Virus record (IMG/VR): IMGVR_UViG_3300034031_000013
Span: 1-64,000 of that record
Length of the DNA: 64,000 bases
Source of the DNA: a virus
Reading direction: 5' to 3' (one strand)
Shown here: positions 2,974 to 60,911 of the stretch, in pieces
How positions within the stretch are numbered: the stretch's first letter is position 1
Layout of the letters: the number at the start of each line of letters is the position of its first letter
The notes under the pieces: generated by a model
The model's database searches: none
Told to the model about the DNA's origin: nothing
Seen by the model: only the letters and a program-made list of their open reading frames with translations
Program-made: the position numbers and the translations under genes

Positions 2974-3333
2974 TTAATCTCTTTTGTTTGTAAGTAAATT
3001 AAATAGCTTCTCTTTATCTGCTTTGAGTTCTTCTATTAATTGATTCTTACTATCTATCAATTGATCTTTAGTATTTAATATTTCCTGAACAGCCGGTGTA
3101 AACCCCATTTCAACTGGCGCAGGTTCAATAAGGAGCGCAAGATCAATGTTTAACTTTGTCTTTACATTCTCTATCATATCCAAGCTAAGTTTATCTCTAC
3201 CACACCAAGCAGTAAGCGTTTGGCGGCTTATTCCTAAACTCTTTGCGGCATCTTCCATTCTTAACCCATTGTTTTGCAAAGCTTGTTTTAAAATAATTCC
3301 CTTGATTTTCAGCATGTTATGTATTTGTGACAA
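2974..3333 (-). CDS. XRE-family HTH repressor (CI-like) with C-terminal coiled coil
   Basis: HTH pattern LRMEDAAKSLGISRQTLTAW; heptad repeats KDQLIDSKNQLIEELK; divergent from the early operon. True start may be 3315. Confidence 0.8.
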   Translation of the reverse strand: MSQIHNMLKIKGIILKQALQNNGLRMEDAAKSLGISRQTLTAWCGRDKLSLDMIENVKTKLNIDLALLIEPAPVEMGFTPAVQEILNTKDQLIDSKNQLIEELKADKEKLFNLLTNKRD

Positions 3334-3350
3334 AAATAACTATTTATTTA

Positions 3351-3382
3351 CTTGACAGATGTAAACATTTACTTTACATTTG
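3351..3382 (+). promoter_or_regulatory. Early rightward promoter (Bacteroidota sigma-A type) with an operator-like palindrome
   Basis: TTG at ~3352 and TACATTTG (TAnnTTTG) at 3375-3382; palindrome GTAAACATTTAC at 3361-3372 lies between them. Confidence 0.6.
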
Positions 3383-3605
3383 TTTTGTCATTAGGAATTA
3401 ACGACTTCACAAAAGTACAACTTTTAATCAAATAACCAAACAAGATGAAAACAGTAGCACAGATAGCATTAAATGTACAATCACTACAATATTTAAAACT
3501 ATTTGTAACAATTTGTAAATAACTCTTGTATTAATAAATAATTAGTTACACATTTGCTTTACAATAACCAACAATAACATTACAACATTTAAAAGACTTG
3601 CAAAC

Positions 3606-4214
3606 ATGAAAACAACAATCACTTTAACAGACGAGAAACTTCAAGACATCTACACAGATGAACAATTTAGAAACCAAGTAGCGAACGCACACAGTTGCCT
3701 TGATTCAAATCACAATTTCAAACACAAGCAAACCTGCTCTTATCCTACTACATATATAGTAACAGAGGAACAAATTGAATTAGCCAAAGTAGAGAAATTA
3801 AGAGCCAAAGAGCAATTCATTAAAGACCACGAAAACGCTTTAATCTTTATCGGCATGGGCATGACTTATGAGCCGACGGAGGGCAATGATGTAGGAAACT
3901 ACAGAGTAAGAACACAATTCACTAACCCAAATGGCAGAACCTTCTTTATAGAGGTTTGCGGAGGCAGCAACGATTACAAATCTCATGTAACATACTCGAT
4001 TGATGTTGATTTACAAAAGAGAAGAGAAAGCGAAAAACCATATATACAAGACTACTACAACTATAACGGCTTAGAAAGAAACGCTAACCCGATATATACA
4101 AAAGAAAGCTTATTAAGCCTTGTAAATCGTCAATTCGACTGCAATTTCTCTGAAATTATAATAGATAACTACAATCTATCGCCGGACGATATCACCTGCA
4201 AAAGCCCTAATTAA
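3606..4214 (+). CDS. Early hypothetical protein
   Basis: 202 aa ORF preceded by AAAAGACTTGCA (3591-3602). Confidence 0.75.
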   Translation: MKTTITLTDEKLQDIYTDEQFRNQVANAHSCLDSNHNFKHKQTCSYPTTYIVTEEQIELAKVEKLRAKEQFIKDHENALIFIGMGMTYEPTEGNDVGNYRVRTQFTNPNGRTFFIEVCGGSNDYKSHVTYSIDVDLQKRRESEKPYIQDYYNYNGLERNANPIYTKESLLSLVNRQFDCNFSEIIIDNYNLSPDDITCKSPN

Positions 4215-4247
4215 TCAAATATTAGCCACTACTAAAAGACTTGCACC

Positions 4248-4490
4248 ATGAACTGGAATAACATTGACTTAAAATCTAATTACGAGGCTTCACAAAACAT
4301 ACTAGAGCCTTTAAGCTTCGACATTCTCTTACTAGAAATACACTGCAATGCAAGAGAGATAAACGAGGCAACAGTTACCGCACAATTCGAAGAAGATTTA
4401 AGAAGCAAGATAGCGTCAGCGCGGGAAATATTCAAAGCCAACCTTGTAAATATTGTAAACCACGCTAAGGAAGAAAGGGCAAAACCATGA
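4248..4490 (+). CDS. Early hypothetical protein
   Basis: 80 aa ORF preceded by AAAAGACTTGCA (4234-4245). Confidence 0.7.
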   Translation: MNWNNIDLKSNYEASQNILEPLSFDILLLEIHCNAREINEATVTAQFEEDLRSKIASAREIFKANLVNIVNHAKEERAKP

Positions 4491-4577
4491 AAATCATAAA
4501 AGCCCTTGCATGGATATGCGCAGTATTCCTGCTTATCCGACAGCTAATGAGTAAAGAATAAACAAATGGTTAGTTGA

Positions 4578-4632
4578 TGCCTGATTGACGACAGGACTTG
4601 AGAAAGTCAGAGGCTCGTAACCTCGTCAGGCA
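4578..4632 (+). ncRNA. Minimal tRNA-like RNA (acceptor stem, hairpin and T-like arm; no D arm)
   Basis: TGCCTGA/TCAGGCA 7-bp stem, GACTT-GAGA-AAGTC hairpin, GAGG-CTCGTAA-CCTC arm with a 7-nt loop. Confidence 0.45.
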
Positions 4633-4874
4633 CTAAGTGAAACAGCAAAGAGAGGGAATAAGCCGTTTGCCTCTGAAAATAAAGCTAAAGTAAAAGACCA
4701 ATCGAAAGTGATTGTAGGGTATATGCTTTAACACCCGAAACAAAGGTTAAGCCGTCCAGCAGACTGAAAGAGTTCAGGAATTTAAAAGAGCCTGATTTAA
4801 TTACTGCATCATAATCGGAACGAAACAACCCCTCAAGCTTGAAATAGTGCTACGGGCATAAGTTAAAAGACTAT

Positions 4875-4928
4875 ACGTCTATAGCTCAATGCTATACTGA
4901 TGAGGCCAAAGGGAAGAGGCCGAAACGT
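4875..4928 (+). ncRNA. Type III hammerhead ribozyme, predicted cleavage after C4879 (GUC)
   Basis: ACG-UC / stem I UAUAGC-UCAAU-GCUAUA / CUGAUGA core (4897-4903) / stem II GGCC-loop-GGCC / GAAA (4922-4925) / CGU; all core nucleotides present. Confidence 0.92.
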
Positions 4929-4954
4929 TTAACTAATTAAAAGACTTGCAAATT

Positions 4955-5320
4955 ATGGGGACTTTAAAAACATTGGACTTACCTAACCACATTCAAGAAC
5001 TTACCCTTTGCGATAAGGATAATTTAAGTTTCGATTATCAAAACAATAGTCACTATTGGATGACAGAAACAGAGGAAGAGTATAAAAAGGTACTGTCTAA
5101 AATAGACAAGTTGAAGATGGAAAATAAAACATACCTAATATATGCATGGTATGATATTTCCTCATTCGATTATTGGAAACGAGAAAGAGATACCAATTAC
5201 ATCCAATTAACGGTAGTTATTAAAAAACCAATTCTCACCAACAAACAGATATACAGATTAGAAAACGACCTAAATAAATTAGACACAAAAGCGTGTATAA
5301 TCCTTTCGGACATAAACTAG
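4955..5320 (+). CDS. Early hypothetical protein
   Basis: ATG 4955 preferred over track TTG 4946 because it follows the AAAAGACTTGCA motif (4939-4950). Confidence 0.7.
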   Translation: MGTLKTLDLPNHIQELTLCDKDNLSFDYQNNSHYWMTETEEEYKKVLSKIDKLKMENKTYLIYAWYDISSFDYWKRERDTNYIQLTVVIKKPILTNKQIYRLENDLNKLDTKACIILSDIN

Positions 5321-5371
5321 AATTAACCCCTATGAATATTAACACGCCTTAAACCACTAAAAAAGACTTGC

Positions 5372-5626
5372 ATGAAAAAGATCATCATCACATTATCAAT
5401 TGTATTTAGTGCCTTTCTAGTACAGGCACAGACAGCAAAGAAAGACCCTACAGGTAATTACATAGAGGTAACCAAAGAAAGCACCGCAAAATTAACGGAT
5501 AAAACCTTTACCACCTTAAAAGGCGAAGTTTTTAAGGTCTACGAAACGGACAAAGGGAGGCTATTTGTAAAGCGCAAGAGTGCCAAGACTGGCAAATCTT
5601 ACAATCAATATCTAAAAGTTAATTAG
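5372..5626 (+). CDS. Small secreted protein
   Basis: Signal peptide MKKIIITLSIVFSAFLVQA; motif at 5361-5372 abuts the ATG. Confidence 0.7.
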   Translation: MKKIIITLSIVFSAFLVQAQTAKKDPTGNYIEVTKESTAKLTDKTFTTLKGEVFKVYETDKGRLFVKRKSAKTGKSYNQYLKVN

Positions 5627-5637
5627 GAGGCTGAAAG

Positions 5638-7294
5638 ATGGAAAATAAGCCACTTACAAAAAGCCAAGCCATTCAAGCCTGTAAAAAGGAGCTAAGAGAG
5701 TGGATAATGGTTAAACGCCTATATCATTTAAGGATAGACGAAATTAACGCCTGTACGGTACGAGTAAGCGCAGTACATGACGGAGTTTATTACAGTAGAC
5801 AAGCAAAGTTTAACACCAATGAGCCATTTTAAAATATGCTTTCTAATTGGTCACAATTGGAAAGGCTTGCCAGGGTATTTAGATATATCAAATTTAGTTT
5901 ATAAAAAGAAATTTTGCAAACGATGTTTAGCAACCAAATGAAACTCTTTCTCCCCCTCCTATTAGCCTTTTTAATAGGCGTTACACTAGGCTTGATACTA
6001 GGAACAAGGAAACCAAAGCTAAACTACTTACAGCCTCAAAACTGCATCGCTCACCCTCCTATATTCAGGGCATGAAAGAGTATCAAAGACAGCTAAGAGA
6101 GGGAGGGGTTAAAGCATTGCTAATCAAGTTAGACGTTAAAGAAAAGCAGGAACGCTACGAGGAATGTGAGGAAATAGTTCAGGCTATCAGAGAGTTTAAC
6201 CAAGCGAATGAAAAGAACTATCCTACCCGATTAACAACGGATTTAAAAAAGCAATTACAATTAACATGAATAAAGAAACAAACTTCATAGGCTATTCCAA
6301 TGGAGTACCCTATGATATACTTGATATAAGGCACGATAAGGAGAATATCGGGTTAATACGTGTATTTGGATTTGATGCGCCTGTATGGTGCTTATTTGAT
6401 CGGATAACGCAAAGGAGTTCAATTAATGGAAAGTAAGATATGTATTCGCTTTTAACAATCATAGATGCGCGTATTCAAGCGTACGACATAAACCTTACCC
6501 AATGCGAAAATAACCTTGAAGCTGAATATTGGAGAGGCAGGTTAGCGGAAGCAATGGAACTATTACAGGAAGTGTTAAACATGGCAGAGGCAGACAGTGA
6601 CGAAAATGATGATTTTGAACCTTATCTCGGTCAGGATTAATGGAAACACGCCAAATAACAACCATCCGCAACGCCCTTAACAGACGCAAGGAGATAAGAC
6701 AAGGGCTAAAGTGTACTAACATAGCCTATGACCTTTGGATAGCTAGTTTAAGCTATGAAACAGGGCTAACAGTAGAATTTATAATTGATAATCTGGAAAT
6801 AATTAAGGAGCTATGAAAGAACTAAAAACCACCATAGAGAATACAGGACTTGTAAACAGGATAGATGACTTAATCAACCAATGGACTTGCCCTGATATAG
6901 ATAAGTATGCAGACGGTTCATACTCCCTTTATCTTTCCTTTACAGAACTATCAGCAAAAGACATCTCTAAAGAGATAGTAGAGTTAATGGTAGAGTTTAT
7001 CATGGCTACAGATTCACGAAACTACAGTAGAAGAGTATACGAAGCCTCTGTAAATCATTTTTTGAAAGAACGATATAAAGAACCCAAGCCATGACCACAA
7101 TCCCAAACCAAATCATTCAATCAGCCTCCCTTATAGCAAGAGAGGTGTACAGCGATTTAAAGAACCTAGGACGAGTTACAGACTACATTCAAGAGAATAG
7201 TCACACAGCAGATTTTGAACTGTCTGACGGCTTCCGAATGAGGGCTATCGAGAAGAAGAACGAGTTCTACTATAATATTTTCAGAGCAAGTTAA
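5638..7294 (+). other. Run of small early hypothetical ORFs (5638-5832, 6072-6269, 6440-6640, 6813-7094, 7091-7294 and shorter ones)
   Basis: Tightly packed co-oriented ORFs with overlapping start/stop codons. Confidence 0.6.
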
Positions 7295-7299
7295 AATAT

Positions 7300-7463
7300 T
7301 AAATACTTCCTGCTTGAAGTAAGATCGGTGATACTAATATATCCGATGAAAGACGCAGAATAAAACTGATGGAGGCTGCGATTCAGAGTATCATATTCCA
7401 AACGCTTTTACAGAGAGAGACACGGCTACTGACCCGAACATTCCTAGTGACAGGAAGTATTTA
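7300..7463 (+). ncRNA. Candidate structured ncRNA (~164 nt) with predicted pseudoknot
   Basis: 13-bp terminal inverted repeat TAAATACTTCCTG/CAGGAAGTATTTA; internal hairpins; loop TGATACT complementary to AGTATCA; strand assumed from operon. Confidence 0.5.
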
Positions 7464-7469
7464 TCATAT

Positions 7470-7539
7470 CTGCCTTTAGTTTAAGCAAAACAACCCTTGC
7501 AAGTGGGGAGATGGAGGTTCGAATCCTTAAGGCAGACCA
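7470..7539 (+). tRNA. Degenerate tRNA-like gene (TGC/GCA in loop, anticodon stem broken, encoded CCA)
   Basis: CTGCCTT/AAGGCAG acceptor, TA, GTTT/AAAC D stem, GGTTCGAATCC T arm, ACCA end. Confidence 0.6.
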
Positions 7540-7647
7540 ATGTGCGCACAATCGTTCTTTTTAACCATCCCAATTTAATCAACTGTTAATTTTTTAAACA
7601 CTTCTTAAATTGTATCTACAAATCTAATGTTCCTGACGAAAGAACAC

Positions 7648-7676
7648 GCCCGTATCTGCACTGTACGGGCTTTTTT
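7648..7676 (+). terminator. Intrinsic terminator
   Basis: GCCCGTA...TACGGGC followed by TTTTTT. Confidence 0.7.
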
Positions 7677-7816
7677 ATTAACCAAGATGCTAATTAAGCT
7701 AGTTTAACATGAACAGCCACAGCCTGCGCGCTGACCTTAGTAGTGCCTATCTAACAGACTGCAATAATTCTGGGGCGTGAAGAGTAAGAGGTGAGATGCC
7801 TCATTAGAATAGTTGA

Positions 7817-7849
7817 GGGAAAGGCTTGAAATATAGTCTTTCCTTTTTT
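7817..7849 (+). terminator. Intrinsic terminator
   Basis: GGAAAGGC...GTCTTTCC followed by a T-run. Confidence 0.6.
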
Positions 7850-8125
7850 ATCACCCCTAACCTAACCAATTATGGAACCCTACAAATTAGCTATAGTACT
7901 ATTTGCCTTGATAGATGCAATAATAATTGTATACAGCTTATCAAGCGCAATGGAGGATAATACAGAGGAATTTTGATATGAGAGAAAGAACATCGGTAAG
8001 AGGCTTTGATGAATTAGAGACATTGCCAAGAGCAGAACCAATATCAGGCATCCCTTTACACCTTACAAGAGAAGAGATAAGGAAGTTCTACGAGAAGAAG
8101 AAACTACAGAATAATAAATAACCAC

Positions 8126-8953
8126 ATGAAAATATTTGAAACCGTATCATTCCATATTGTGAAGCCTTGCAACATGAAATGTAAATTCTGTTATGCCACA
8201 TTCGAAGATATGCACGTAGGCGCACAGATGTCACTTGAACACGCCTGTACTGTAATAACCAAGTTGTATTTATCGGGAGTTCAGAAGATAACATTTGCAG
8301 GTGGTGAGCCATTGCTGTACAAGCACATAGACGACTGTATAAGCTTCTCGAAAGGGCTAGGCATGACAACTAGCATAATAACAAATGGTAGCTTAATAAC
8401 CCACCAATGGCTTGTCAAAATGCAAGGAAAACTTGATTGGATAGGTATATCGGTTGATAGTTTAGACCCGCGCACCAATGATTTGATTGGTAGGCGAACT
8501 AAAATGAAAATAGACTACCACGCCCTAGTTAATAATATAAACTTCTACGGATTTAAGCTTAAAATAAATACAGTTGTCAATTCCTTTAACAAGGACGAGG
8601 AAATGAACGAGTTCTTGAATATCGCCAATCCTAGTAGGTGGAAAGTATTTCAAGCACTAAGAGTTGAAGGGCAAAATGATTCTCAATTCGACGAAGTGAA
8701 AGTATCAGATGATGAGTTTGAAGCATTCTTAGAACGACATTCAAGCCAAGTATCATTAGTCCCAGAGAGCAACGAATCAATGACCGCTAGTTACCTTTTA
8801 ATTGACCCATTAGGCAGGTTATTTGAAAATAGCTTAGGCTCTCATACTTATTCAGATTCATTAATTAACAATAATATAGAACACTGCTTATCGCAAATAA
8901 GCCTTGACAGGGATATGTTTCTCAAAAGAGGCGGAGTTTACGAATGGGCTTAA
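8126..8953 (+). CDS. Prokaryotic viperin (pVip, RSAD2-like radical SAM ddhNTP synthase)
   Basis: FHIVKPCNMKCKFC (CxxxCxxC), FAGGEP, SIITNGS, WIGISVDS, KINTVV, RWKVFQ, ESNESMTASYLLIDPLGR and C-terminal FLKRGGVYEW, all viperin-family motifs. Confidence 0.92.
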   Translation: MKIFETVSFHIVKPCNMKCKFCYATFEDMHVGAQMSLEHACTVITKLYLSGVQKITFAGGEPLLYKHIDDCISFSKGLGMTTSIITNGSLITHQWLVKMQGKLDWIGISVDSLDPRTNDLIGRRTKMKIDYHALVNNINFYGFKLKINTVVNSFNKDEEMNEFLNIANPSRWKVFQALRVEGQNDSQFDEVKVSDDEFEAFLERHSSQVSLVPESNESMTASYLLIDPLGRLFENSLGSHTYSDSLINNNIEHCLSQISLDRDMFLKRGGVYEWA

Positions 8954-8965
8954 AATAACCACGAT

Positions 8966-10217
8966 ATGAAATCACTATTTGAAACCCTAGCAACACCATT
9001 AAGAAACCACGCTGATCTAGTAATAGCAGGAATAGATTCTGAAACAGCATCAAGAATTGTCTTTGACCCGCTAAAACAAGTACAGGACGAGGTAGATGAC
9101 GAACGCTTAAATGAAGCCTTTAGACGTGCTTTTATATGGGGGCAGATGCAACAGTTGAAGTTAGATAACGGACGCGCCACACAGTCTGATTTCGAGGCTA
9201 TGGAGGCGTGTATAGAGGATGTTAGAAAGATTCTATGATCCCCGACATTCAAACCCTTCTCATTCACTACCCACACTTAACCGTTGGGGAGTATTGCAAA
9301 CAGTTTCTAGGTATTGATATGGTAAAGGAGACTGAACCGATCAAGCCTGAATATGAAACCGTTCGCCTGATCTCTAAGATTAACGAATCTATTGCTATAG
9401 AACAGGCTAGAGCAAATGGGTATGAGAAAAGACCGAGAATCAGAAACAATAACATCAGAAGCACACCCGAATACGGGATAGACAAAAAGCAATTCATTTA
9501 TCAAAAGAGATACGGAGACTATTAATATGAAAAGGATAACCAAATCAGAGAGCTTCTTAACGGGAGCTTTTTTTATGTTCTGCCACTACTTCTTTGAGGC
9601 TTATAATAAGATGATATGAAAGATACAACTAAAGAATTTCAGTTACCGAGGGAGTTCGGTGAGAAATGGATAAAGGCTTTAAGAAGCGGTGAGTATAAGC
9701 AAAACACCGATGCTCAATTACTTGTGCCGGAAACAGGCTGTTATTGCGCTTTAGGTGTCTTTGCCGTTGCAAATGGCATGGAGTTGAGTGATGACGGCAT
9801 GGATGTATTAATCGACGGGAAATTAGCAGACTACAAGCCATTTAAAGACCTTATGACAAAAGAGGGAATGGTTAAAATCTATAGACTAAACGACAGTAAA
9901 GATGCAACCTTCCCCGAACTGGCAGATTGGATAGAACGAAATGTAGAGTTCGTATGAAACAGCCTATCGTAGTCAGTAATTTCAGTCAGCTATCCTACGC
10001 TTTAAAAGCAGGACACCCGCCTGTAGAGGTTAAGGAGAAGCCGAAGCAAGCGCATTCAGGTTCTTGGTCGGTTTATTATGGGAAGTTGCTTGTAGAGGCT
10101 AATATCAAGTACTACGGCCAATGTGTGAATAAAGTAAATGAGTGTAAACTAAACGGGAGAGATTACCCTAAACCGGAATTATTGAAAATCAAACCTTACG
10201 AAAATGGAAACAAATAA
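8966..10217 (+). other. Four small hypothetical phage ORFs (8966-9238, 9235-9525, 9616-9957, ~9954-10217)
   Basis: Co-oriented; 9616-9957 has the recurrent phage pattern WIKALRSGEYKQ...CYCALGV...LND...F.ELADWIE. Confidence 0.65.
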
Positions 10218-10941
10218 AGAATATCTATCAAGGCTATTGCCTTTATTAAAGAAGCCGATACCTCACCAATGGAGAGTACAAAGCTATTCAAAGAACAAGC
10301 CAGTAGCAACAGTTATGGCTTACGTGGACGCTAGGGACGTACAGGACGTATTAGATACCTACTGCGAGTACGGATGGCAGAGAAAGCACCAAATGCTTAA
10401 TGACAGGCTATATTGCTCTTTAGGAATACAGATGCCTGACGGGACTATTCAATGGAAAGAGGATTGCGGTACAGAAAGCAATCAAGATGCTGAAAAAGGA
10501 CAAGCCTCGGACGCATTTAAGAGAGCAGGAGTTAATTGGGGGATTGGCAGGTTCTTGTACGATATGAAAATTCAGTACGTAGACACCAATGTAAAGAAAG
10601 AAGGCAACAATCATCCTAACTGTGTGGATAAGCAAGGTAAACAGATTTACGATTTAACAACGTATATCAACAACCTTAACCCTAACGCACCGCAAGCCCC
10701 AAAAGCTTCTGTTATTGTGCCTGAACTTTCCACAGACGATAAAGTAAGGAACATGACAGGTAGAAGCAATCCTGAATTAGCTCAGTCCGTTGCAGATGCT
10801 GTATTAGCCTGCAAGAGCAGACAGGATATAATAGACCTTGTTGCCCATCCCGACTATAAGCAATACGAATCTAATGAGAAGTTTCAGAAGCTAGTAAAAT
10901 CAGAAATAGCAAAATATCCTAAACCTCAAAAATCAGCATAG
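10204..10941 (+). CDS. sak: Sak / Rad52-like single-strand annealing protein
   Basis: WRVQ...AYVDARDVQDVLD...EKGQASDAFKRAGVNWGIGRFLY. Confidence 0.9.
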   Translation: METNKEYLSRLLPLLKKPIPHQWRVQSYSKNKPVATVMAYVDARDVQDVLDTYCEYGWQRKHQMLNDRLYCSLGIQMPDGTIQWKEDCGTESNQDAEKGQASDAFKRAGVNWGIGRFLYDMKIQYVDTNVKKEGNNHPNCVDKQGKQIYDLTTYINNLNPNAPQAPKASVIVPELSTDDKVRNMTGRSNPELAQSVADAVLACKSRQDIIDLVAHPDYKQYESNEKFQKLVKSEIAKYPKPQKSA

Positions 10942-10959
10942 AAAGTAAACAATTAAATT

Positions 10960-11304
10960 ATGGAAATACAAGGATTGGTTCACGAAATCGGAGCCACACA
11001 GAACATTAGCGACACTTTTAAAAAGAGAGACTTGATTATTGAGTATGCGGAAAACCCCGAGTATAAAGAGTATCTTAAGTTCGAGGCGGTACAGGACAAA
11101 GTAAACCTATTCGACACAGTAAAAGTTGGCGAAAAAGTTGAAGTGTCGTTTAACTTAAGAGGCAGAGCGCATACTAAAGATGGCAAGACTAGCTATTTCA
11201 ACAGTCTTGTTGCATGGAAGCTAAACAAACTAGGTTCTGCCAGTGAATCTGCTCACGTTCCAGCAGGTGTAGAGTCAGACGAAGACCAAGATTTACCATT
11301 CTAG
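10960..11304 (+). CDS. DUF3127 single-stranded DNA-binding protein
   Basis: MEIQG...FKKRDLIIE...VEVSFNLRGR...YFNSLVAWK; acidic tail ending DLPF. Confidence 0.88.
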   Translation: MEIQGLVHEIGATQNISDTFKKRDLIIEYAENPEYKEYLKFEAVQDKVNLFDTVKVGEKVEVSFNLRGRAHTKDGKTSYFNSLVAWKLNKLGSASESAHVPAGVESDEDQDLPF

Positions 11305-11307
11305 GGC

Positions 11308-12027
11308 ATGGCAGAAGTCAAAGAGCAATTAGTATTCTTTGACCCAATAGAACACAAGTACACAGATAGAGAGGGCAATAGGCTAATTTCGGTTAGTCAG
11401 TTGCTTTCTTTGTTTAAACCCAAATTTGACCCGACAGGCGAGATAACAGCGAAGTATGCCAAGAAGCATGGAATGACTGTTGCCGAGGTGCTGGACAAGT
11501 GGAAGCAAATTAACACACAGTCCTGCACTTACGGAACATCGGTACATGAAGAAATTGAACATTACATCAATACCAAAGAGATAAGATCATCCGATCATAT
11601 CCATTACGTCAATCAGTTTGCAGAAATTAAATTTCAGGGAAGGTTATTCTCGGAGCGTATGCTTTACTGCCTTGATAATATGGTAGCTGGAACAGCAGAC
11701 ATCGTTGAACGGATTGGATTTTATATAAATATTTGGGATTTTAAGACGAACAAGGAGCTATCCAAGTTCAACAATTTCGGAGGCAGGATGCTTTACGACC
11801 TTTCCCACTTATCGGACTGCAATTTCAATCACTATCAGCTTCAATTATCGCTATACGGTTACTTGTGTGAACTAAAGGGGTTGAAGGTAAACGATTTAAT
11901 CATTCTTTATATGAATCCCAAGACCTTAAAGATGGAGTTCCATCGGTGCAGGTATATGAGGGATGAAGTAAAGTACATTTTAGAAACAAAAGACACATTA
12001 TGGGACAATCAAAAAATTCTTTCCTAG
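11308..12027 (+). CDS. PD-(D/E)XK exonuclease (Cas4/RecB-like fold)
   Basis: H.Y...ISVSQLL, GTSVH, AGTAD...IWDFKT, HYQLQLSLY. Confidence 0.85.
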   Translation: MAEVKEQLVFFDPIEHKYTDREGNRLISVSQLLSLFKPKFDPTGEITAKYAKKHGMTVAEVLDKWKQINTQSCTYGTSVHEEIEHYINTKEIRSSDHIHYVNQFAEIKFQGRLFSERMLYCLDNMVAGTADIVERIGFYINIWDFKTNKELSKFNNFGGRMLYDLSHLSDCNFNHYQLQLSLYGYLCELKGLKVNDLIILYMNPKTLKMEFHRCRYMRDEVKYILETKDTLWDNQKILS

Positions 12028-12455
12028 AGCTAAGGGCCGAGGATATGGTACTCATGTACGACCATGAGTTCAGTAAGAAAAAAGCAGAAGCTACAGGCGT
12101 AGCACTTGTGCAGGGCGTGTTTGACGATGGGCTTGTAGACCCAATGAAAGTTATGTCTAATATCGTTCGCTTAAAAGCAGTTATTGACAGCGCAGATAAG
12201 GCATTTAGAGAGCGTTTAAGCCTACCTTCTGCCGCTAGTTGGAATGGAGTAACCTTTACCCCTAAGAATGGCTCAGAGAAGCTAGTTTACGAAGAAGATG
12301 CGGTTTGTAAAGACTTGTCGGAGAAGCTAAAGGCAAGACAGGAACTTGTTAAACTTGCTACTAAGTCAAAGGATGCTATTTATGACAGCGAAGGATGTGA
12401 GGTAACAAGGGTATCAAGCAAGTTCGACAAGGCTAGTATCACAATTTCATTTTAA
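12000..12455 (+). CDS. Conserved phage protein in the recombination module
   Basis: 151 aa ORF; context. Confidence 0.65.
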   Translation: MGQSKNSFLELRAEDMVLMYDHEFSKKKAEATGVALVQGVFDDGLVDPMKVMSNIVRLKAVIDSADKAFRERLSLPSAASWNGVTFTPKNGSEKLVYEEDAVCKDLSEKLKARQELVKLATKSKDAIYDSEGCEVTRVSSKFDKASITISF

Positions 12456-12460
12456 AACCC

Positions 12461-12489
12461 AAGCCACTAACTCCCATTAGTGGCTTTTT
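12461..12489 (+). terminator. Intrinsic terminator
   Basis: AAGCCACTAA...TTAGTGGCTT followed by a T-run. Confidence 0.75.
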
Positions 12490-12493
12490 ACAT

Positions 12494-12564
12494 TGGGGGA
12501 TAGTTTAATTAATAGAACGTTGGCTTCATGCCATCAGATGCAGGTTTGAATCCTGCTCCCTCAA
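12494..12564 (+). tRNA. Degenerate tRNA-like gene (CAT or TCA in loop, ambiguous anticodon arm)
   Basis: TGGGGGA/TCCCTCA acceptor, TA-GTTT...GAAC D arm, GCAGG-TTTGAAT-CCTGC T arm. Confidence 0.6.
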
Positions 12565-12739
12565 CTAACCAAATCAAGCACCATGAATCAGCTAAAGAAC
12601 TATCTAACGGGGGTTAAAGCCGTAGCCCGTACTGCAAGTCCTAACGGAAGGGATTACAAGCACAACGGAAACTTCACCCCTCTAACAGCATGGAATGGCG
12701 AACAGTTTAACTATAGCCCTATCCTTAATCAAAAAGAAC

Positions 12740-12925
12740 ATGAAGAAAACGAGACAGAGAAATAAAGACGGAAGAAAGCTAGTGGCAGTAACGATTCAAA
12801 TCTTCGAGGATCAGCACGAAGCCCTTTTGAAAATATCCAAAGGGAAGAAGCCTATTGCTAAGCAGGTGGTTATACAGAACCTCCTAGATGAAAAAGGATA
12901 TAACGGATTAAAGCAAACAGCATGA
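12740..12925 (+). CDS. Possible ribbon-helix-helix DNA-binding protein
   Basis: VAVTIQIF (beta strand) then two short helices; start re-assigned to the MKKTRQ ATG. Confidence 0.45.
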   Translation: MKKTRQRNKDGRKLVAVTIQIFEDQHEALLKISKGKKPIAKQVVIQNLLDEKGYNGLKQTA

Positions 12926-13418
12926 ATACAAGCATTATAGCCATAGAAGCAACTACAAGCTTACTATACACTCCAATTGACAATAGTTATGCAGTTTGTT
13001 TATCTGATGGTAAAAATCATTATTTGGCGGGAACCCATGATAGTAATGCAAAGACTGTTAGGATAATTAGTCCGGTTTTTATTAATAAGGTTTATAGTGC
13101 CCTCGATGATCGTGTAACCTATGAATACCAATTTGTTTTGGTACAGGATAGGGGAGGGTTGATACATTCTGTCCTTTATAACGAAAGAGGCTTGAAACAG
13201 CATTGACCAATGGAACGAACAACTGAATCAACGGAAGCCTTGAGACTTAAATGCACCCTCCTTGAGATACGTATTGAATCTTTAACCCATGAGCTAAAGG
13301 AAGCAAGAGAAGGATTAGTAGCGCAAGGACAAGCACACGATCACTTTAAGAACTGGATAGGGAATATTCATAACTATAAGAAGTGGGTAACAGGATTAAC
13401 AACTAAAAGCGAAGAATA

Positions 13419-13970
13419 ATGAATCTATTTGACCCTGAAATTGGAAGTACATGGAAAGTTGTTGACAGGCAGCCCACACCCGATAAGCCAAAGGGGTTTA
13501 TCGGCGTGGATAATGGCGTGTCGGGAACGATAGGAATCATTACAGAGAACGGAACAGCCTTAATGTACAAAACCCCCATAAAGAACGAACAGAGCTACAC
13601 AAAGGCTAAAAAACGCATTAACAGGGTCGATGTAGTTAAGCTTAAAGATATGTTGAGTGAATTTTCAACCAACAGTAAAGTTGTAATTGAGCGTCCTATG
13701 GTAAACCCGAAGATGTTCAGTACAACCCTTAGTGCCATGAGAGCATTAGAAGCTACCATTTGTACCCTAGAAGATATGGGGTTCCCTTACAGCTATATCG
13801 ACAGTCGCGAATGGCAAAAAGAAATGTTGCCGAGCGGATACAAGGGAGTTGAACTTAAGGTTGCATCCCTCGACATAGGCAAACGCCTGTTCCCTCACAT
13901 TGATTTAAAGCATCCCGACCGCGATAGCTTACTTATGGCAGAATACCTGCGCAGACAGTATAAAAGTTAG
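13419..13970 (+). CDS. RuvC-like Holliday junction resolvase
   Basis: FIGVDNGVSGTIG, VVIERP, WQKEML, DRDSLLMAEY. Confidence 0.8.
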   Translation: MNLFDPEIGSTWKVVDRQPTPDKPKGFIGVDNGVSGTIGIITENGTALMYKTPIKNEQSYTKAKKRINRVDVVKLKDMLSEFSTNSKVVIERPMVNPKMFSTTLSAMRALEATICTLEDMGFPYSYIDSREWQKEMLPSGYKGVELKVASLDIGKRLFPHIDLKHPDRDSLLMAEYLRRQYKS

Positions 13971-13972
13971 CT

Positions 13973-14425
13973 ATGAATAAGCTACGACATTGTGGCTTAG
14001 GCGGTCACGATGTTCCTATGCTTTGGAAATCTAAAACCAGCACAAGCCCCTCCGCCTGCAAGTATTGTTGGTTTGCACAAAACCCCATCTCGATAAAGAA
14101 AGTCGCTCCTGTGGCAGATATGAAAGCGAGAGAGGCAAAGAAGCCTAAGCCCATCAAAAAGGTTAGCGACAAGCAGAAGAAAATCAATGCTGCCTATACT
14201 ATCCTCCGAAAGCAATTCCTAAAGAACCATCCGAACTGTCAGGCACAGCTTGAGGGTTGTACTTATCAAGCAACGGATTGCCACCATTCGAAAGGTCGCA
14301 CAGGGAGCAATATGCTAGACGAAACAACTTACATCGCCCTTTGCCATAACTGCCATGTAAAAGTGGAACTCTCGCCTACTATGGCAAAGCTATTGGGGTT
14401 ATCACAAAACAGATTAGATAATTAG
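13973..14425 (+). CDS. HNH-type (NinG-like) endonuclease
   Basis: CQAQLEGC..ATDCHH.KGR...ALCHNCH. Confidence 0.7.
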   Translation: MNKLRHCGLGGHDVPMLWKSKTSTSPSACKYCWFAQNPISIKKVAPVADMKAREAKKPKPIKKVSDKQKKINAAYTILRKQFLKNHPNCQAQLEGCTYQATDCHHSKGRTGSNMLDETTYIALCHNCHVKVELSPTMAKLLGLSQNRLDN

Positions 14426-14428
14426 ACT

Positions 14429-14962
14429 ATGAGAAACGTAATATTCCTTGATATTGACGGGGTTTTGAACTCTGAATTGTTTTACAGGGAGAGGCACGAA
14501 AAATCTCAGAAGGAGGCAAAGAAAGCCGTAAAGCGGGATGAAATTGAAAGGTTGGAATATTATAAGTCTAATATATGCCTAGAGCGTATCCAATGGCTTA
14601 ATGAACTCTGCGAAGAAACAGATTCAGTTATTGTTGTTTCGTCTACTTGGCGGTCAGGGAAGTCAATACAAGACCTACAGGAAATGTTTAACTATTGCGG
14701 TGCTACATTTATCGTGGTTGGTAAAACAGGGCATTGTGAGTGCCGAATAAGAGGTGTAGAGATAAGGCAGTGGCTAGAAAAGCATTGCATGGAATATTTC
14801 GGGGTTAACTACTATGACTTTTATAGGTACGCTATAATTGATGATGACGGCGATATGCTATTGTGGCAACAAGATCATTTCTTTCAAACCGATAATTGGT
14901 CAGGATTAACGCCAACTACCTGCTATAAAATTAAACGGTTCTTTACTCATAAAACATTTTAA
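14429..14962 (+). CDS. HAD phosphatase, Swiss-Army-knife RNA-repair type (HAD_SAK_2)
   Basis: IFLDIDGVLN, VVSSTWR, RGVEIRQWL, YAIIDDDGDM. Confidence 0.85.
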   Translation: MRNVIFLDIDGVLNSELFYRERHEKSQKEAKKAVKRDEIERLEYYKSNICLERIQWLNELCEETDSVIVVSSTWRSGKSIQDLQEMFNYCGATFIVVGKTGHCECRIRGVEIRQWLEKHCMEYFGVNYYDFYRYAIIDDDGDMLLWQQDHFFQTDNWSGLTPTTCYKIKRFFTHKTF

Positions 14963-14964
14963 CC

Positions 14965-15159
14965 ATGACACCACAACAAGAATCCCTATTAGAGCAGGTA
15001 CTTGTAGAAATGAGTGCCTTGAGAAAGGAAGTAACAACCATTAACAAGGCACTCGCTTACAAAACCACAGCCGTTAAAAAGCAAGAATCCGTTCAGGATA
15101 TTGCCAATTCAATCATCGCCGAAACAATCCTCAAGGCGAAACAGAATCGCCATAACTAA
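14965..15159 (+). CDS. Small coiled-coil protein convergent with the integrase
   Basis: 64 aa; stop overlaps the integrase stop. Confidence 0.55.
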   Translation: MTPQQESLLEQVLVEMSALRKEVTTINKALAYKTTAVKKQESVQDIANSIIAETILKAKQNRHN

Positions 15160-16505
15160 TACACAACCCTCGGAGGTCTTGGCCTCGATGCTATATCGCA
15201 CTTCAACTTTCGTAAATATGTTTCCGTTTGAATCGTTGTGGTGTGCCTGTTTTGGATTGAAATCTGAAACAAATCCCATCCCGCTTTAAACGCTTCTATA
15301 TTCCCTGTAGCCTTAAGTGAATATAAAGAGTGCTTGCCATCGTTGTAGATATTTAAGTCCTCTAAGGCGGCTTTAAATCGCGTAGAAAGCCCACTCCTAT
15401 CTGCTCTCTTAAGCGAAGGAATCATATCGGAAGTAAAGACGTAATAGTTGTCGTACTTCTTATCATCGAAGTATTGCTCCCAACCGAGTTTTTCAAATTC
15501 AGCTACAAGTGCGGGGTCAAGGTAAAGCTCGGTAAATATCTTCTTCTTTGTCTTGGTGCTACCAACGGAAAGGGAAAAGTAACCCTCCTTATATCGTTTA
15601 ACATTCTTAATCTTAATACGCCTTAATTCAGATATTCTGATAAACGTATAGAAAATTGTACGGCAGATATAAGCCATGAGCTTATTAGATATATAAGCCT
15701 TTCCAGGAACAACCCTAGCTATTACCCTTGCTTGATCGAAGTACTCAAGTATCTTCTTAAGTTGAACGGTAGAGAAAGGTTCGAATCGTTCACTGTCCTC
15801 TACAGACTCTTTACGGTCGATTGTAATGGATATATCTTTATAGTCATACCTACGTGCATAATAAGCAAACATAGCCCTTATAGAGCCTAATTGATTGTTC
15901 CATGTTGTATCTTTTATTGTGCCGCTTGTATATCGTTCTTCAAAGAATTGTAAGATCGTATTCTTAGTTATTTTGTCTAAACGGGCAGTTAAACAGTCCT
16001 GCTCTCTGCAAAACTCCTTGAACAAGTTAAACAATGAATTATACGTACCCTCGGTATTTTCTTTATTCTCGGGAGCGGCCTTTGATGGGTTGTCCTTTCC
16101 TGCCTTGATTTTCAACCACTGCTCAATAGCTTTTTCAAGTGTAGGTATTGGCGATGGGTCGTTGGCTTGGGAAAGTAGTTCTTCAATGGGTTTATCAACA
16201 AGAGGCGAAATAGCTACGCCTGTCTTTGGATCAACGCCAATAGATAATTGAGTCGCTACCGCAATGCGAATACCCTCACCGTTCTTCTTACGAAGCCTAG
16301 TGTTAGATATGTGTTCTTTCTTGTTAAGAATTTTGGAATAGTACTTTTGAGGGAGCCACTTGCCGTTATCGAAATCCCATATATGGTAGTAGATATACCA
16401 ATCTCCTTTCTCGGGAGTTTTAAGAACGGGAGCGGCACGAAAGAGTTCTTTACCTTGGGGCAAGTAATAGTAGTTACCATCTACTTCAATTCGATTTAAT
16501 TGCAT
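15156..16505 (-). CDS. int: Tyrosine recombinase (integrase)
   Basis: FIRISEL (R), TKTK (K), YSLKAT (HxxR variant), QNRH, TETYL (Y); N-terminal arm/SAM-like domains. Confidence 0.88.
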   Translation of the reverse strand: MQLNRIEVDGNYYYLPQGKELFRAAPVLKTPEKGDWYIYYHIWDFDNGKWLPQKYYSKILNKKEHISNTRLRKKNGEGIRIAVATQLSIGVDPKTGVAISPLVDKPIEELLSQANDPSPIPTLEKAIEQWLKIKAGKDNPSKAAPENKENTEGTYNSLFNLFKEFCREQDCLTARLDKITKNTILQFFEERYTSGTIKDTTWNNQLGSIRAMFAYYARRYDYKDISITIDRKESVEDSERFEPFSTVQLKKILEYFDQARVIARVVPGKAYISNKLMAYICRTIFYTFIRISELRRIKIKNVKRYKEGYFSLSVGSTKTKKKIFTELYLDPALVAEFEKLGWEQYFDDKKYDNYYVFTSDMIPSLKRADRSGLSTRFKAALEDLNIYNDGKHSLYSLKATGNIEAFKAGWDLFQISIQNRHTTTIQTETYLRKLKCDIASRPRPPRVVY

Positions 16506-35244: not shown

Positions 35245-38200
35245 TTATTCTTCTTCGGCTTTCAGCGTTAGGTCATATTCGCCTTTCCCTTTTTGGTAGT
35301 CTTTCAATATCTTATCCTTAGAATACGCATTGACTTCGCTCTTAAGTTTGTTTTTAGCAGTAATTGCCGCCGCCTCTTTCGACTCTCCTTTATCTATTGC
35401 TTTCTTAGTTACAGTAGCTAGGATTGTTTCGCCATGCTTGGCTATGAACTCTTTCTTATAAGCCTGACGCTCTCTGATTTGCTTTGGTGAAAGCTGATAG
35501 GTTTTAGACTCTCCGTCTTTTTCTACCTTGATGTAGATTAGTTTAGGGGATACGCCCGATACGGCTTCCTTAGCGGCTTCGGTGGCTTCTTTCTTTACCG
35601 CCCCTATTTCTTTCTCAAATTCCTGTACGGTCATTTGAGCATACTCGCTAAACCTAGATTTAAGGTTGCCTTTGATGTATTCTCCGTAAGCCTGTTTGTA
35701 TGTCTTAAATTCGTCTTTCGTTGGCGTTCTTTTTTCAAAAGTTTCAGGGTCGAATACCTCTACGTCGTTTCTGTGTTTCTCAAAAAACGATACGTTCTTT
35801 TTGGCAAGTAGCATACGTAACTTCTCATCTTTATCCTTATCTAAAAACTCAGGCGTTCCGTAAGTGTTCATATTTACCCCAAAGAAACTTAGCGCAATCA
35901 AAAAAGATGACATTGTTTCGGGATGCTCTTTACGTAGCTCATCAATCCCTTGCGTCCATATTGGGGCTGTGGCTGCCCACATTTCACTTTCGGCGTCGAA
36001 CATCTGTCCTTTTCTTTCGTCAAGTATTCGGTATCCTACCCCTGATAATGGCGAGAATTTATTTGTGCTGAATCGCATAAGCAAATCCCATCTATTCGGG
36101 CTGAATGCGTTCTCGCCTAGATTTATTGTCTTACTGGACGAGGCTGATTTGTAATTACCTGTGAACTCCCTTGCAAATAGTATCACATTCTGATTAAGCC
36201 CTCCGAATAGGTCGATTCTTGTATTTCCAATTCTAAGTTTCATGAAATCATTGCTCACTGGATTGAATACATCAGGGTTCTCATCTTCGTCGTTATCATC
36301 TCTGAAAGACTTTATCGCAAGCGTCAAGGTTGTTGCTACGGTAATAAATGTAGCCATCTTTAATGTTGCTCGTTTTGCTACAACAGGGCTCGTGTACCAC
36401 ATATGCCCCCAATATCCAGGATTCGTAAGCGATAGCGTTGCTGTTATCTTTCTCGGAGCAAAGAATACTACAGCTAATTCCTTAGCAACAGGCTCGGCGA
36501 ATCTTAATCTGCCCCTGAATGTAATATTATTAGCCGCATTAGCCGCTATTTCATACTGTCTTGGGTCACTCTCGAACGTAATACCCTTAGCCTTAAGGTC
36601 GGCGGCAAACTGCTTAAACAACTGAACCCTGAGCGTATCGACAACGCCTGTATAAGCTCGCTCTGTGGCTCTGTAAGGATTGAATAATATAGCTCGTTCG
36701 TATAGTTTCCTATTTGTGTATTGAAGTGGGTAAAGCATCCCTTCCCATATTTTATTTATCACCGAACCGCTTAATTGGTAATCTTTTGAGCCTAGCTTTG
36801 TATTGGGGAACTGTAAAGCTAACCCCGATTGCTCCATGACAGAAAATAGCGGGTCTGCTTTTAATTTAGCTAAGAATGTCCTTTCGTAATTTTCCGAAGC
36901 CATGAATTTAAACCCTTCTTTTATCGCTTCGTAGGTTTTAACAGGATTAGTAGATAATGCGGCTACTATTCCCTGTACTCCTAGCGCACTAAAGTCTAAG
37001 CCAGCCTGCAAGGCGCGTTGAAGCCCTGATGTCCATTCTATACTACCGTCTTTAAACTTTTGCCATCCAGTTCTATTAGCCTGTTCATTCTCAAAATGAG
37101 CTTCATCATACTTGCCTCTTACTTCATGTGCTTTCGCCTCAAGTTCCGCTAGTTCTCCATCGGCGAGAACTGGGCTTGGTTTAGATTTAGGCGCGAAGTT
37201 CTTGGCATCTAATCTTTCATTCTTCTCTCTGATAAATTCTTTCAGATATTCTTTCCGTTTTTCACGTCTCTGATTTTCGTCTAATTCTGCTTCTGCCTGC
37301 GTTTTCGGTATTGTTTTTTCAAGGATATTTATTTGACGCTTTAATTCGCGCTCCTTCTCGCTTAATGCGCTATACTCTTTGCCGTCCTTGGTTTTCTTTT
37401 TCCCTATTTCTAAATCTTCAAGTTGGGAATATAGCCTGCCTAACCGTTTTGCTTCGTTGATTTTCTGTTGAAGTGCGTCGGCGGTGCGGTTTACTGTCTT
37501 ACCGTATTTTGTTATAGCATCACGAACCTGCCTTGGTGTAATATCAGGCAAATCCTTTTGAACTTCTGCTTGTACAGCTTCGGTTAAACCGTTAATATCA
37601 GTTACTCCTTGCTCTACAAGGTCACGGATGAAGTTAGAGGGTATAACTAGCTCGCCTTCTTCCACGAACGGTTTCTCAACCACTCCATCTAAATCAACTT
37701 TGCCTTTCCCGCCGATTCGCTCATAAAGCTCAGGTAGCTTCATTTTGGATTCGACGCCAACGGTTTTAAGCATTTCCTTCGCCCACACCTTAAAGTCACC
37801 TTTCGATTCCTTAAGGTTTAATCGAGCATACTCTATAAAGTCTGCTTCAAACCAAATGGTAGCTACACGGGAAATGTCGTTAAACACCCTGTATTTCTTC
37901 GCTAACTCTCTTTTACGGGCTTGCTCCTGTGGGGTAAGCACCGATTTCTTGGTCTTGGCACTTCTTGCAATATCTTCCGCAATATCCTTTACTGCCTGCT
38001 CTTCCTCGGCTTTAATAAAGCGTTGTTCGGCTTCTGCGATTTCTTCTTTTAGTCGGGTGAGTTCTTTGTCGTACTCTTTGAATTTAGCCTCTATTTCGGG
38101 AGAAATATAGCCCTTGTTAACTTTCTTGTACTGCTCGATCTGTGAAACGAGGTTGTAGTCTTTGTCAAGTAAGCCACGACGCAATCTAAAGGCTAGAGAC

Positions 38201-41376: not shown

Positions 41377-41429
41377 ACCCAAATATACCTAAGATACAAA
41401 GGCGATATTAGGGGTTTACGGCTTTAGCA

Positions 41430-60700: not shown

Positions 60701-60911
60701 CATACCAATCCCACTGTTCAGGAATAGGGTCTACATACCAGACCTTTCCCTGCTTGGGATCATCGTTCCAATCCCAAGACAAATATTCTTCGTGGCGATA
60801 CCATATTTGGTCTGTTTTTTTTAGATGAGAGCCGCGTATGTTTTTGATTTTCGGGATAGCAGGCGTAGTATAAATCAAGCCCTCGTAAATATCGAATGTC
60901 TGTACAGCCAT
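57774..60911 (-). CDS. terL: Terminase large subunit containing an intein
   Basis: MKGRRIGVS (Walker A region), LLVDE (Walker B), C-terminal nuclease GLD...D. Confidence 0.9.
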   Translation of the reverse strand: MAVQTFDIYEGLIYTTPAIPKIKNIRGSHLKKTDQIWYRHEEYLSWDWNDDPKQGKVWYVDPIPEQWDWYEAEIDRIMNGEWILINGVPTFFNAFCYFFHQWAITKEGVYPTYKDTSLLFFRFMEIVFSDPRCRGGNVMKGRRIGVSTMSISIMLQFALIKANIEQGIVSKTGGDAEKIFKLMLVNAFASLPPFLKPRISGNDTPAKVLHITKPPERASKDRATSSTRDGLNNKIEWRATSGNVFDGDGLWMLLVDECFDPETKIMVEGYTFKAIKDIKIGDKVVVEGGKLIEVQNTVSGIDDMYRIKQPYSKDYIVSSKHKLYLEQRCNVKSIFDDGIKTMTPEEFINLGKYRKRTTFGLRSSGIDFPEIDNLIDPYVFGAWIGDGIGSNIGFVVNEPEDRELIDYLKEYATKLGYDTSIYQPLNSKKAKCIYFVRHVRTSKSNPLLNELKRLGVYKNKFIPDEYLFNSRENRLQLLAGIIDTDGHCDQRKYSIHICMSREDLIGQICFLARSLGFSTSTPRFKNTNYNTDSYVVSISGDLSIIPTKLNRKQFPAYKQTAKYRRNRIEVIPEGVGKYVGIQLKTENLDDKRLILEDFTLSMNCGKWEEVDINAYLPIALKSIVAGKNVGRLLLITTVNSADKGGSNYKAVWDGSSQLKRDAMGQTEKKLYRLFIPGFMGYEWFVDKFGNSVVETPTPEQTEWLKKDPRCLNAFIGSKEYCDLQRKNKENDPEDYMEEVRMVPYNPEEVFKSANNLCHFNTIDLNNQIERVEEIIKSKGKTPWNDATHKGDENGRRGLFKKPDGGKVEFVDNSEGMWHILELLPFEEANKFAFKGSIKCPDNTSYGAAGLDTFANAKQTVDKGSDACCVIFKRRNALNPHNSGMPVAMFIGRPKTKQEFHNQIFWGLEYYGIRMLAERSPTDWEDYATDEARRLASPIDQKKKFGYLVTTKRADDSEVYGIAPQDTQSREEHLTEMVEYALNNMEKIYFIRILRDMLKFNIKERTDYDAGMAFGYSLMALKEKTKPIQSKQSGIRYIKTYRLGGA
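59103..60140 (-). mobile_element. Intein (346 aa) with LAGLIDADG homing endonuclease
   Basis: DE|CFDPETKI start, SMN|CGKW end; FGAWIGDG and LAGIIDTDG motifs. Confidence 0.9.

Follow-up and report, generated by a model that had tools for sequence, protein, structure and literature searches.

A viperin of a largely phage-borne clade on the early strand of a putatively temperate Bacteroidota phage

The window, by which we mean the whole stretch of DNA that was analyzed, covers 64 kb from the start of an IMG/VR record of 75,857 bp, which carries a 127-bp direct terminal repeat (DTR) and so represents a complete phage genome. A gene for a viperin is found there on the plus strand, within a block of genes that extends from 3606 to 14962 and is divergent from the repressor. 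The block is composed, in order, of small ORFs, a weakly called tRNA-Leu gene, the viperin unit, a recombination module, a second tRNA gene and the genes for a Holliday-junction resolvase, an HNH endonuclease and a HAD protein. The arrangement is that of a lambdoid early operon, and it places the viperin on the strand read in the lytic direction. The features of the region are as follows.

2974 to 3333, minus strand: CI-type HTH repressor of 118 amino acids (Pfam HTH_3 at 26.4 bits, Phage_CI_repr at 26.1 bits, each above its cut-off; PHROG transcriptional regulator/repressor families)
3334 to 3605, no strand: divergent control region separating the repressor from the rightward early genes, with TAnnTTTG at 3375 (plus) and at 3417 and 3338 (minus) as putative promoters
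3606 to 7294, plus strand: array of small early genes, read rightward, that precedes the viperin unit (ORF list; no family for the ORFs tested)
7469 to 7538, plus strand: tRNA-Leu(CAA), a weak call (ARAGORN; 31.9 bits with the Rfam tRNA model, whose gathering score is 29)
7648 to 7670, plus strand: intrinsic terminator (8-bp GC-rich stem and T6; dG -12.7 kcal/mol, z -3.49)
7671 to 7926, no strand: non-coding spacer of 256 nt in which no canonical Bacteroidota or sigma-70 promoter is recognized
7927 to 8121, plus strand: predicted ORF of 64 amino acids with a TTG start, or 47 amino acids from the ATG at 7979 (ORF list only)
8126 to 8953, plus strand: viperin (radical-SAM ddhNTP synthase family), member of the phage clade (ORF list; profile, PDB, tree and model matches)
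8966 to 9238, plus strand: ORF of 90 amino acids downstream of the viperin (ORF list; no Pfam or PHROG family)
9235 to 9525, plus strand: ORF of 96 amino acids with a 4-nt overlap with the 90-aa ORF (ORF list; no Pfam or PHROG family)
9547 to 9572, plus strand: weak terminator-like hairpin closing the four-ORF unit (dG -10.9 kcal/mol, z only -1.34)
10204 to 12027, plus strand: recombination module with a Rad52/Erf annealase, a DUF3127 SSB and a PD-(D/E)XK exonuclease (Pfam and PHROG matches)
15156 to 16505, minus strand: tyrosine integrase that converges on the end of the early block (phrog_1 89.9 bits; Phage_int_SAM_5 and Phage_integrase below the Pfam cut-offs)

The viperin unit consists of four ORFs, orf64-viperin-orf90-orf96. 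An earlier note on this DNA had described the viperin as embedded in the early operon, starting 4 nt after the stop of the preceding gene and ending 12 nt before the next start. The coordinates of both neighbors are exact (7927..8121; ATG at 8966), but the 4-nt coupling depends on the predicted TTG-start ORF, which belongs to no Pfam or PHROG family and has no homologue beside any other viperin of the clade. The early, lytic-direction position on a phage genome likewise holds, but a tRNA gene, a strong terminator located 456 nt upstream of the viperin and the 256-nt spacer precede the unit, so that the upstream genes and the viperin do not form one uninterrupted operon. In agreement with the note, no canonical promoter was recognized ahead of the unit, and a scan for sigma-70-type promoters performed no better than on shuffled sequences. 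The viperin must therefore be expressed either by read-through of the terminator or from a promoter of a kind that was not recognized, and the timing of its expression is read from gene order alone. The note's further claim of host-type TAnnTTTG promoters finds a mild enrichment in its favor (10 occurrences within 80 nt upstream of gene starts, 5.2 +/- 2.2 expected), which is weak support. On the plus strand the motif does not occur between 3375 and 16342, an interval that includes the 13-kb early block and in which about 7 occurrences would be expected from composition; the gap may be accidental or may result from selection against promoters inside the block.

Several other observations were made along the block. 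At 7608-7644, contigs from three sequencing runs join different DNA, shared among them, at a segment of about 35 bp that is unique within the phage; this is probably a mosaic recombination junction with another phage backbone and would mark a module boundary just upstream of the viperin unit. The second tRNA gene (12494-12565, plus strand, Rfam 49 bits) lies directly after a strong terminator (12461-12486, z -5.6) and has the anticodon UCA, which would read the UGA stop codon. Recoding of TGA was rejected as its explanation, since reading TGA as sense lengthens no real gene. Two pairs of genes, SSB/exonuclease (10960-12027, plus strand) and HNH/HAD (13973-14962, plus strand), share a reading frame, with just a TAG stop and a single codon between the two genes; read-through of TAG would fuse each pair, and the arrangement is probably due to chance. 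The early block ends with a stand-alone HAD_SAK_2 phosphatase domain (14429-14962, plus strand), known from the 'Swiss army knife' RNA-repair proteins. It was considered as a partner of the viperin and rejected: a homologue stands directly upstream of the viperin in one MAG contig (L050) and is absent from the other carriers, in a search whose control gave no signal.

The viperin gene has an intact reading frame with an ATG start and a TAA stop, as the earlier note had stated together with the presence of the family motifs. The NCBIfam model NF038283 matches the protein with 285.3 bits (cut-off 180, E 4e-85) over residues 6-269, and the three PADLOC pVip models score it at 265-281 bits. The animal-specific model TIGR04278 gives 194 bits where its cut-off is 450, in line with a viperin of prokaryotic type, and radical-SAM families other than viperin stay below 80 bits. 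PHROGs contains no viperin family, and only its generic radical-SAM families match. Solved viperins align to residues 6-275 with E values from 1e-48 to 2e-55. The [4Fe-4S] motif CxxxCxxC (C15-x3-C19-x2-C22) and the SAM-binding motif GGEP (G59-G60-E61-P62) are invariant in the clade and in cellular viperins, and the C-terminal R268-G-G-x-Y-x-W274 (R268, G269, G270, Y272, W274) aligns to the solved viperins. An AlphaFold model built with 31 relatives as input (pLDDT 84, pTM 0.85) superposes on mouse viperin bound to CTP or UTP (6Q2P, 6Q2Q) with a TM-score of 0.90 and an rmsd of 2.2-2.4 A. The first 17 distinct structure matches to this model are all viperins, and the best non-viperin reaches a TM-score of at most 0.73 with an E value of 1e-11. 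No viperin-like structure was found in BFVD.

Around the cluster and the sites for SAM and NTP, the clade keeps every residue that solved viperins share with cellular prokaryotic viperins (pVips). In the nucleobase pocket, Asn235 aligns with mouse Cys314 of the beta-8 loop and His240 with mouse Lys319; with both mouse residues replaced, selectivity for CTP is not expected. An Asn at the Cys314 position has been associated with the promiscuous prokaryotic type of pocket and with promiscuous ddhNTP synthesis (Shomar et al., bioRxiv 10.1101/2023.09.13.557418). About 20 positions are fixed in the clade and differ from the cellular pVips. The clearest is Ser8, two residues before the conserved His10, which is present in 98% of the clade where 99% of 78 cellular pVips have Asn; the resulting Asn-x-His ahead of the cluster motif is near-universal in viperins, although it does not formally define them. 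The Asn presumably lies near the substrate in the solved structures, and no paper on its role was found in the literature searched. Tyr23, Tyr65, Ser83, Leu225 and Cys254 are further residues specific to the clade, and the K-G-H-L motif, Trp12 and Trp67 of the cellular proteins are lost. With these differences, Ser8 and the loss of K-G-H-L among them, the substrate or the partner of the enzyme may differ.

The relatives of this viperin are found almost entirely in phage DNA. Searches identified 13 IMG/VR contigs with a viperin 49-67% identical to it and more than 120 metagenome clusters at 60% identity or higher. Among species-representative genomes (one each for 185,579 species), clade-level identity is reached in only two MAG contigs, both of which resemble arrays of small phage-type genes, and the other 78 cellular hits that were kept are mostly from Bacteroidota at 38-45% identity. 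In a maximum-likelihood tree of 125 rows, 46 rows (the query, 13 viral, 30 metagenome and two MAG rows) form one clade (SH-aLRT 100) on a stem of 0.78 substitutions per site, and none of the 78 other cellular pVips falls inside it. Identity is 49-72% within the clade as compared with 38-48% to cellular pVips, and the nearest outgroup is formed by cellular pVips of Bacteroidota. Many of the nearest cellular proteins are kinase fusions of about 470 amino acids, and no member of the clade is so fused. An exhaustive search of 1.84 billion representatives returned two full-length sequences at 55-56% identity and everything else at 48% or below; at 50% clustering, the clade is thus represented by two full-length sequences among about 400 viperin-level clusters. 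In 50,697 phage records, tblastn found only generic radical-SAM hits (25-34% identical) and no cultured phage record with a viperin. The phylogeny and the search for phage-encoded homologues that the earlier note had proposed therefore yield a separate, fully supported and mostly phage-borne clade. Judged by its sequence, the viperin described here is not a one-off capture; it is a member of a conserved phage-specific clade, the most important point absent from the earlier note, and the 'antiviral' enzyme appears to serve some viruses in their own right.

We compared the neighborhoods of the viperin at 16 loci of the clade. The same synteny, which the note had also proposed to look for, was not found: the viperin is the only gene common to the 16 loci, with no conserved neighbor, and it is always solitary inside an array of small co-directional genes that it often overlaps by 7-26 nt. 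The note's observation that no kinase partner is present extends beyond this phage, with no kinase domain fused to the viperin or encoded by its neighbor ORFs and no kinase at the 15 other loci. The six complete or near-complete carriers measure 32-115 kb and have only 1-13 genes in common with one another, which means that at least five unrelated phage lineages carry a viperin of this clade. One distant relative by backbone (G001; TerL 52%, portal 29%) has kept the viperin at 67% identity, and a second phage of comparable size (G416), considered as a relative of the same backbone, was found to be unrelated and to lack a viperin. The gene is under purifying selection, with a dN/dS of 0.06-0.16 for the pairs that are not saturated, and its GC content follows that of the carrier from 0.23 to 0.40 (r 0.87). 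Among the five carriers at least 90% complete, none has a tyrosine integrase, the one class of recombinase that the search covered, and the phage in our window is the exception.

By its gene content, a CI-type repressor together with an integrase, this phage is temperate, which the earlier note had not pointed out. Among its structural genes are those for a portal, for a beta-helix tailspike, for several virion proteins of very large size and for a large terminase that an intein interrupts. Homologues of the portal are detectable in 86 cultured phages, all 86 of which infect Bacteroidota, so that the host phylum is well supported; these relatives are podovirus-type phages of Flavobacterium, Cellulophaga, Tenacibaculum and Maribacter, 60-79 kb in size, with portals 23-27% identical. 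The source habitat is a biocrust metagenome, and three more runs from biocrust or soil contain identical pieces at low depth, some of which fall within the viperin gene. No match was found with megablast of 25 kb against the 50,697 phage records, searches with the annealase and the portal returned only mosaic relatives that lack the viperin neighborhood, and a search with the portal (run without a positive control) found no related prophage in 401 sampled Bacteroidota genomes. The intein of the terminase (57774-60911, minus strand, 1045 aa) occupies approximately residues 257-540 and contains Hint and LAGLIDADG homing-endonuclease domains; the terminase of another viral contig (L013), of 627 amino acids and 81% identical, is without it.

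The ability of this phage to live with the products of a viperin would depend on which RNA polymerase (RNAP) it uses. The earlier note had seen no RNAP in the window, and this extends to the whole 75,857-bp genome, in which six-frame searches with PF00940, PF00623, PF00562 and sigma-70 region 2 detected none; the note had asked about the remainder of the genome as well. For PF00940, the control was silent everywhere too. A failure of sequence models to detect a polymerase is not proof of its absence. The virion RNAP of crAss-like phages resides in a giant virion protein with a conserved DFDxD catalytic motif (bioRxiv 10.1101/2020.03.07.982082), and two large ORFs were considered as candidates for such an enzyme and rejected. 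In the 2045-aa ORF there is no DFDxD, and neither Pfam, PHROG nor PDB yields a match for it. The 1256-aa virion protein has a DFDTD at residue 96 that is not conserved, the aligned sequence in a 45%-identical homologue being AYDTD. Neither ORF has an RNAP match in PDB, Pfam or PHROG. The giant ORFs of the other carriers, among them proteins of 1778 aa (L122:1169-6502, G008) and 2627 aa (L126:4652-12535, G010), belong to virion or unassigned families (PHROG 'virion structural protein' or no match), with no PDB match and no RNAP signal. Large virion proteins to which no function is assigned remain, of 2045 and 993 aa in this phage and of 2627 and 1556 aa in other carriers. The 2045-aa protein (35245-41382, minus strand) lies in the virion module, is rich in K, E and A with glycine-rich hydrophobic segments, and has a homologue of 1787 aa in the distant backbone relative; its look-alikes in the Atlas are viral hypothetical proteins, one of which has an LPD38 'polyvalent protein' domain. 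The 2045-aa protein may act as a tape measure or in ejection.

Viperin is a textbook antiviral effector common to bacteria, archaea and animals. The pVips (NF038283, PADLOC pVip; Bernheim et al. 2021, Nature 589:120, as cited in PMC8829019 and bioRxiv 10.1101/2023.09.13.557418) share with the phage protein the family, the fold, the cluster and SAM motifs, the C-terminal motif and the Asn pocket, and by analogy the expected chemistry would also be the conversion of NTP to ddhNTP. The phage clade differs from them in being a separate, long-stemmed clade located in phage genomes and not in defense islands, in having neither fusion nor linkage to a kinase where many of the nearest cellular pVips are fusions, and in carrying Ser for the near-universal Asn and lacking the K-G-H-L motif. 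The cellular pVip defense system is encoded by the cell, typically in a defense island and often with a nucleotide kinase, whereas the viperin described here resides in a complete phage genome with no kinase. Animal and fungal viperins (RSAD2; PDB 6Q2P, 6Q2Q, 5VSL, 7N7I) are 35-39% identical over the catalytic domain and superpose on the model with TM-scores of 0.88-0.90, and the phage viperin lacks their N-terminal amphipathic/localization tail. Defenses carried by phages and prophages (P2/P4 hotspots, PMC9122126; superinfection exclusion, PMC8829019) likewise place an immune-type gene on a viral genome where it could act against competitors, but they are mostly expressed in the lysogen from hotspots of temperate elements, while the viperin clade is found in early operons of phages mostly without an integrase. 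The only report of viperin on phage contigs that we found in the literature searched is a one-line remark, without phylogeny or analysis, on annotated pVips in DNA-hypermodification neighborhoods of IMG/VR phages (bioRxiv 10.1101/2023.12.21.572611); the phage described here differs in having no ThyS-like or TET-like genes (the TET control was silent).

The location of the gene on a temperate phage raises the question of whether it serves the lysogen. The four-ORF unit, bounded by terminators, would then be a moron with its own promoter, expressed from the prophage and protecting host and prophage alike. The repressor and the integrase, the strong terminator and spacer before the unit and the weak hairpin after it, the module boundary at 7608-7644 where the run contigs join other DNA, and the well-known hotspots of prophage-borne defense (PMC9122126) all agree with this. 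The unit is, however, read in the lytic direction, at a distance from both integrase and repressor and with no promoter motif ahead of it; the complete carriers elsewhere have no tyrosine integrase (0/5), their viperins overlap the neighbors within long operons, and the portal search of 401 sampled Bacteroidota genomes found no related prophage. Defense by the prophage is possible for the temperate carrier studied here and fits the clade poorly, and we consider it unlikely overall. Somewhat less likely is a role in counter-defense, in which the 3'-deoxy, chain-terminating NTPs would poison those immune enzymes of the host by which nucleotides are polymerized or cyclized (the CD-NTases of CBASS, Cas10 and the pyrimidine cyclases), or drain their substrates. 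The chemistry is plausible, since by our reasoning these target enzymes need a 3'-OH, and a promiscuous Asn pocket would allow several ddhNTPs; the viperin also occupies early accessory arrays, the usual place of anti-defense genes, and has been kept by apparently virulent phages. No association with known anti-defense genes was seen, though, and the host would be exposed to the same analogue in its own transcription and in the priming of replication. The broader version, in which the viperin of the clade is a counter-defense and general interference weapon whose ddhNTPs block both rival phage polymerases and host cyclic-oligonucleotide synthases and spare the host RNAP, is given the same low likelihood.

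It is improbable, and ranked below those readings, that the clade has shifted its substrate or product and serves the nucleotide or nucleic-acid metabolism of the phage in place of chain termination. The stem of 0.78, the roughly 20 clade-fixed positions (including Ser8 beside His10, Tyr65, Ser83 and Cys254), the loss of residues conserved in the cellular proteins and the annotated pVips near phage DNA-hypermodification genes (bioRxiv 10.1101/2023.12.21.572611) would be in keeping with such a change, but the shared residues around the cluster, SAM and NTP sites have been kept, the model can be superposed on NTP-bound viperin, and this phage has no thymidylate-synthase-like or TET-like gene (the latter with a silent control) and the clade no conserved neighbor of any kind. 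A takeover of the host, with ddhNTPs shutting down its transcription or metabolism to the gain of the phage, would suit the early position of the gene and the predominance of virulent carriers. We regard it as more improbable still: hosts tolerate cellular pVips, and a phage with no detectable polymerase needs the host RNAP for its late genes. That the gene is a non-functional passenger, recently captured from a host defense island, is hardly credible, even with cellular Bacteroidota pVips as the nearest outgroup, given the intact frame, the dN/dS of 0.06-0.16, a GC content ameliorated to each carrier and a deep clade that extends over at least five phage lineages.

The reading that we rank first is competition between phages, the idea put forward in the earlier note. 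The family, fold, catalytic residues, phage location, clade, purifying selection and lack of a detectable RNAP are direct results of the analysis, and from the sequences and the model it is very likely that phages keep an active viperin-type enzyme for their own use. The stand-alone enzyme would convert NTPs to 3'-deoxy-3',4'-didehydro-NTP chain terminators, and it belongs to a branch of viperins long resident in phages of Bacteroidota. Host RNAP would transcribe the gene on the rightward, repressor-facing early strand, so that synthesis of the viperin would follow infection or induction and would not take place in the lysogen. E. coli RNAP is reported to discriminate against ddhNTPs, and a phage without an RNAP of its own would tolerate them if the enzyme of its host discriminates in the same manner. 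Bernheim and co-workers are said to have found that some pVips also protect against phages that use the host RNAP; having no RNAP of its own may therefore not guarantee that a phage is immune to its own viperin. The likeliest benefit would be that phages which co-infect or superinfect the cell, and which depend on a polymerase of their own, are blocked. Transcription of T7 that depends on the viral polymerase has been reported to be blocked by pVips (PMC8829019; bioRxiv 10.1101/2023.09.13.557418). Such a use is consistent with an early gene on a phage that has no detectable RNAP and with carriers most of which show no integrase; we nevertheless give it less than an even chance. The explanation as a whole, an active viperin kept by phages and used against their rivals, is put forward tentatively, at a little short of an even chance.

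If this is true, a conserved, phage-resident branch of viperins would mean that viruses also use chain-terminator nucleotides. The branch is under strong purifying selection and is spread over unrelated, mostly non-integrating lineages, and two uses can be envisioned for it, against rival viruses or against the immunity of the host. Should the enzyme be a weapon of interference, an effector of immunity would have been turned into an offensive tool of the virus. The clade also adds natural variants of viperin with altered conserved residues, and the temperate carrier would offer a simple test system, lysogen as compared with induced cells, for when and why a virus makes an antiviral molecule.
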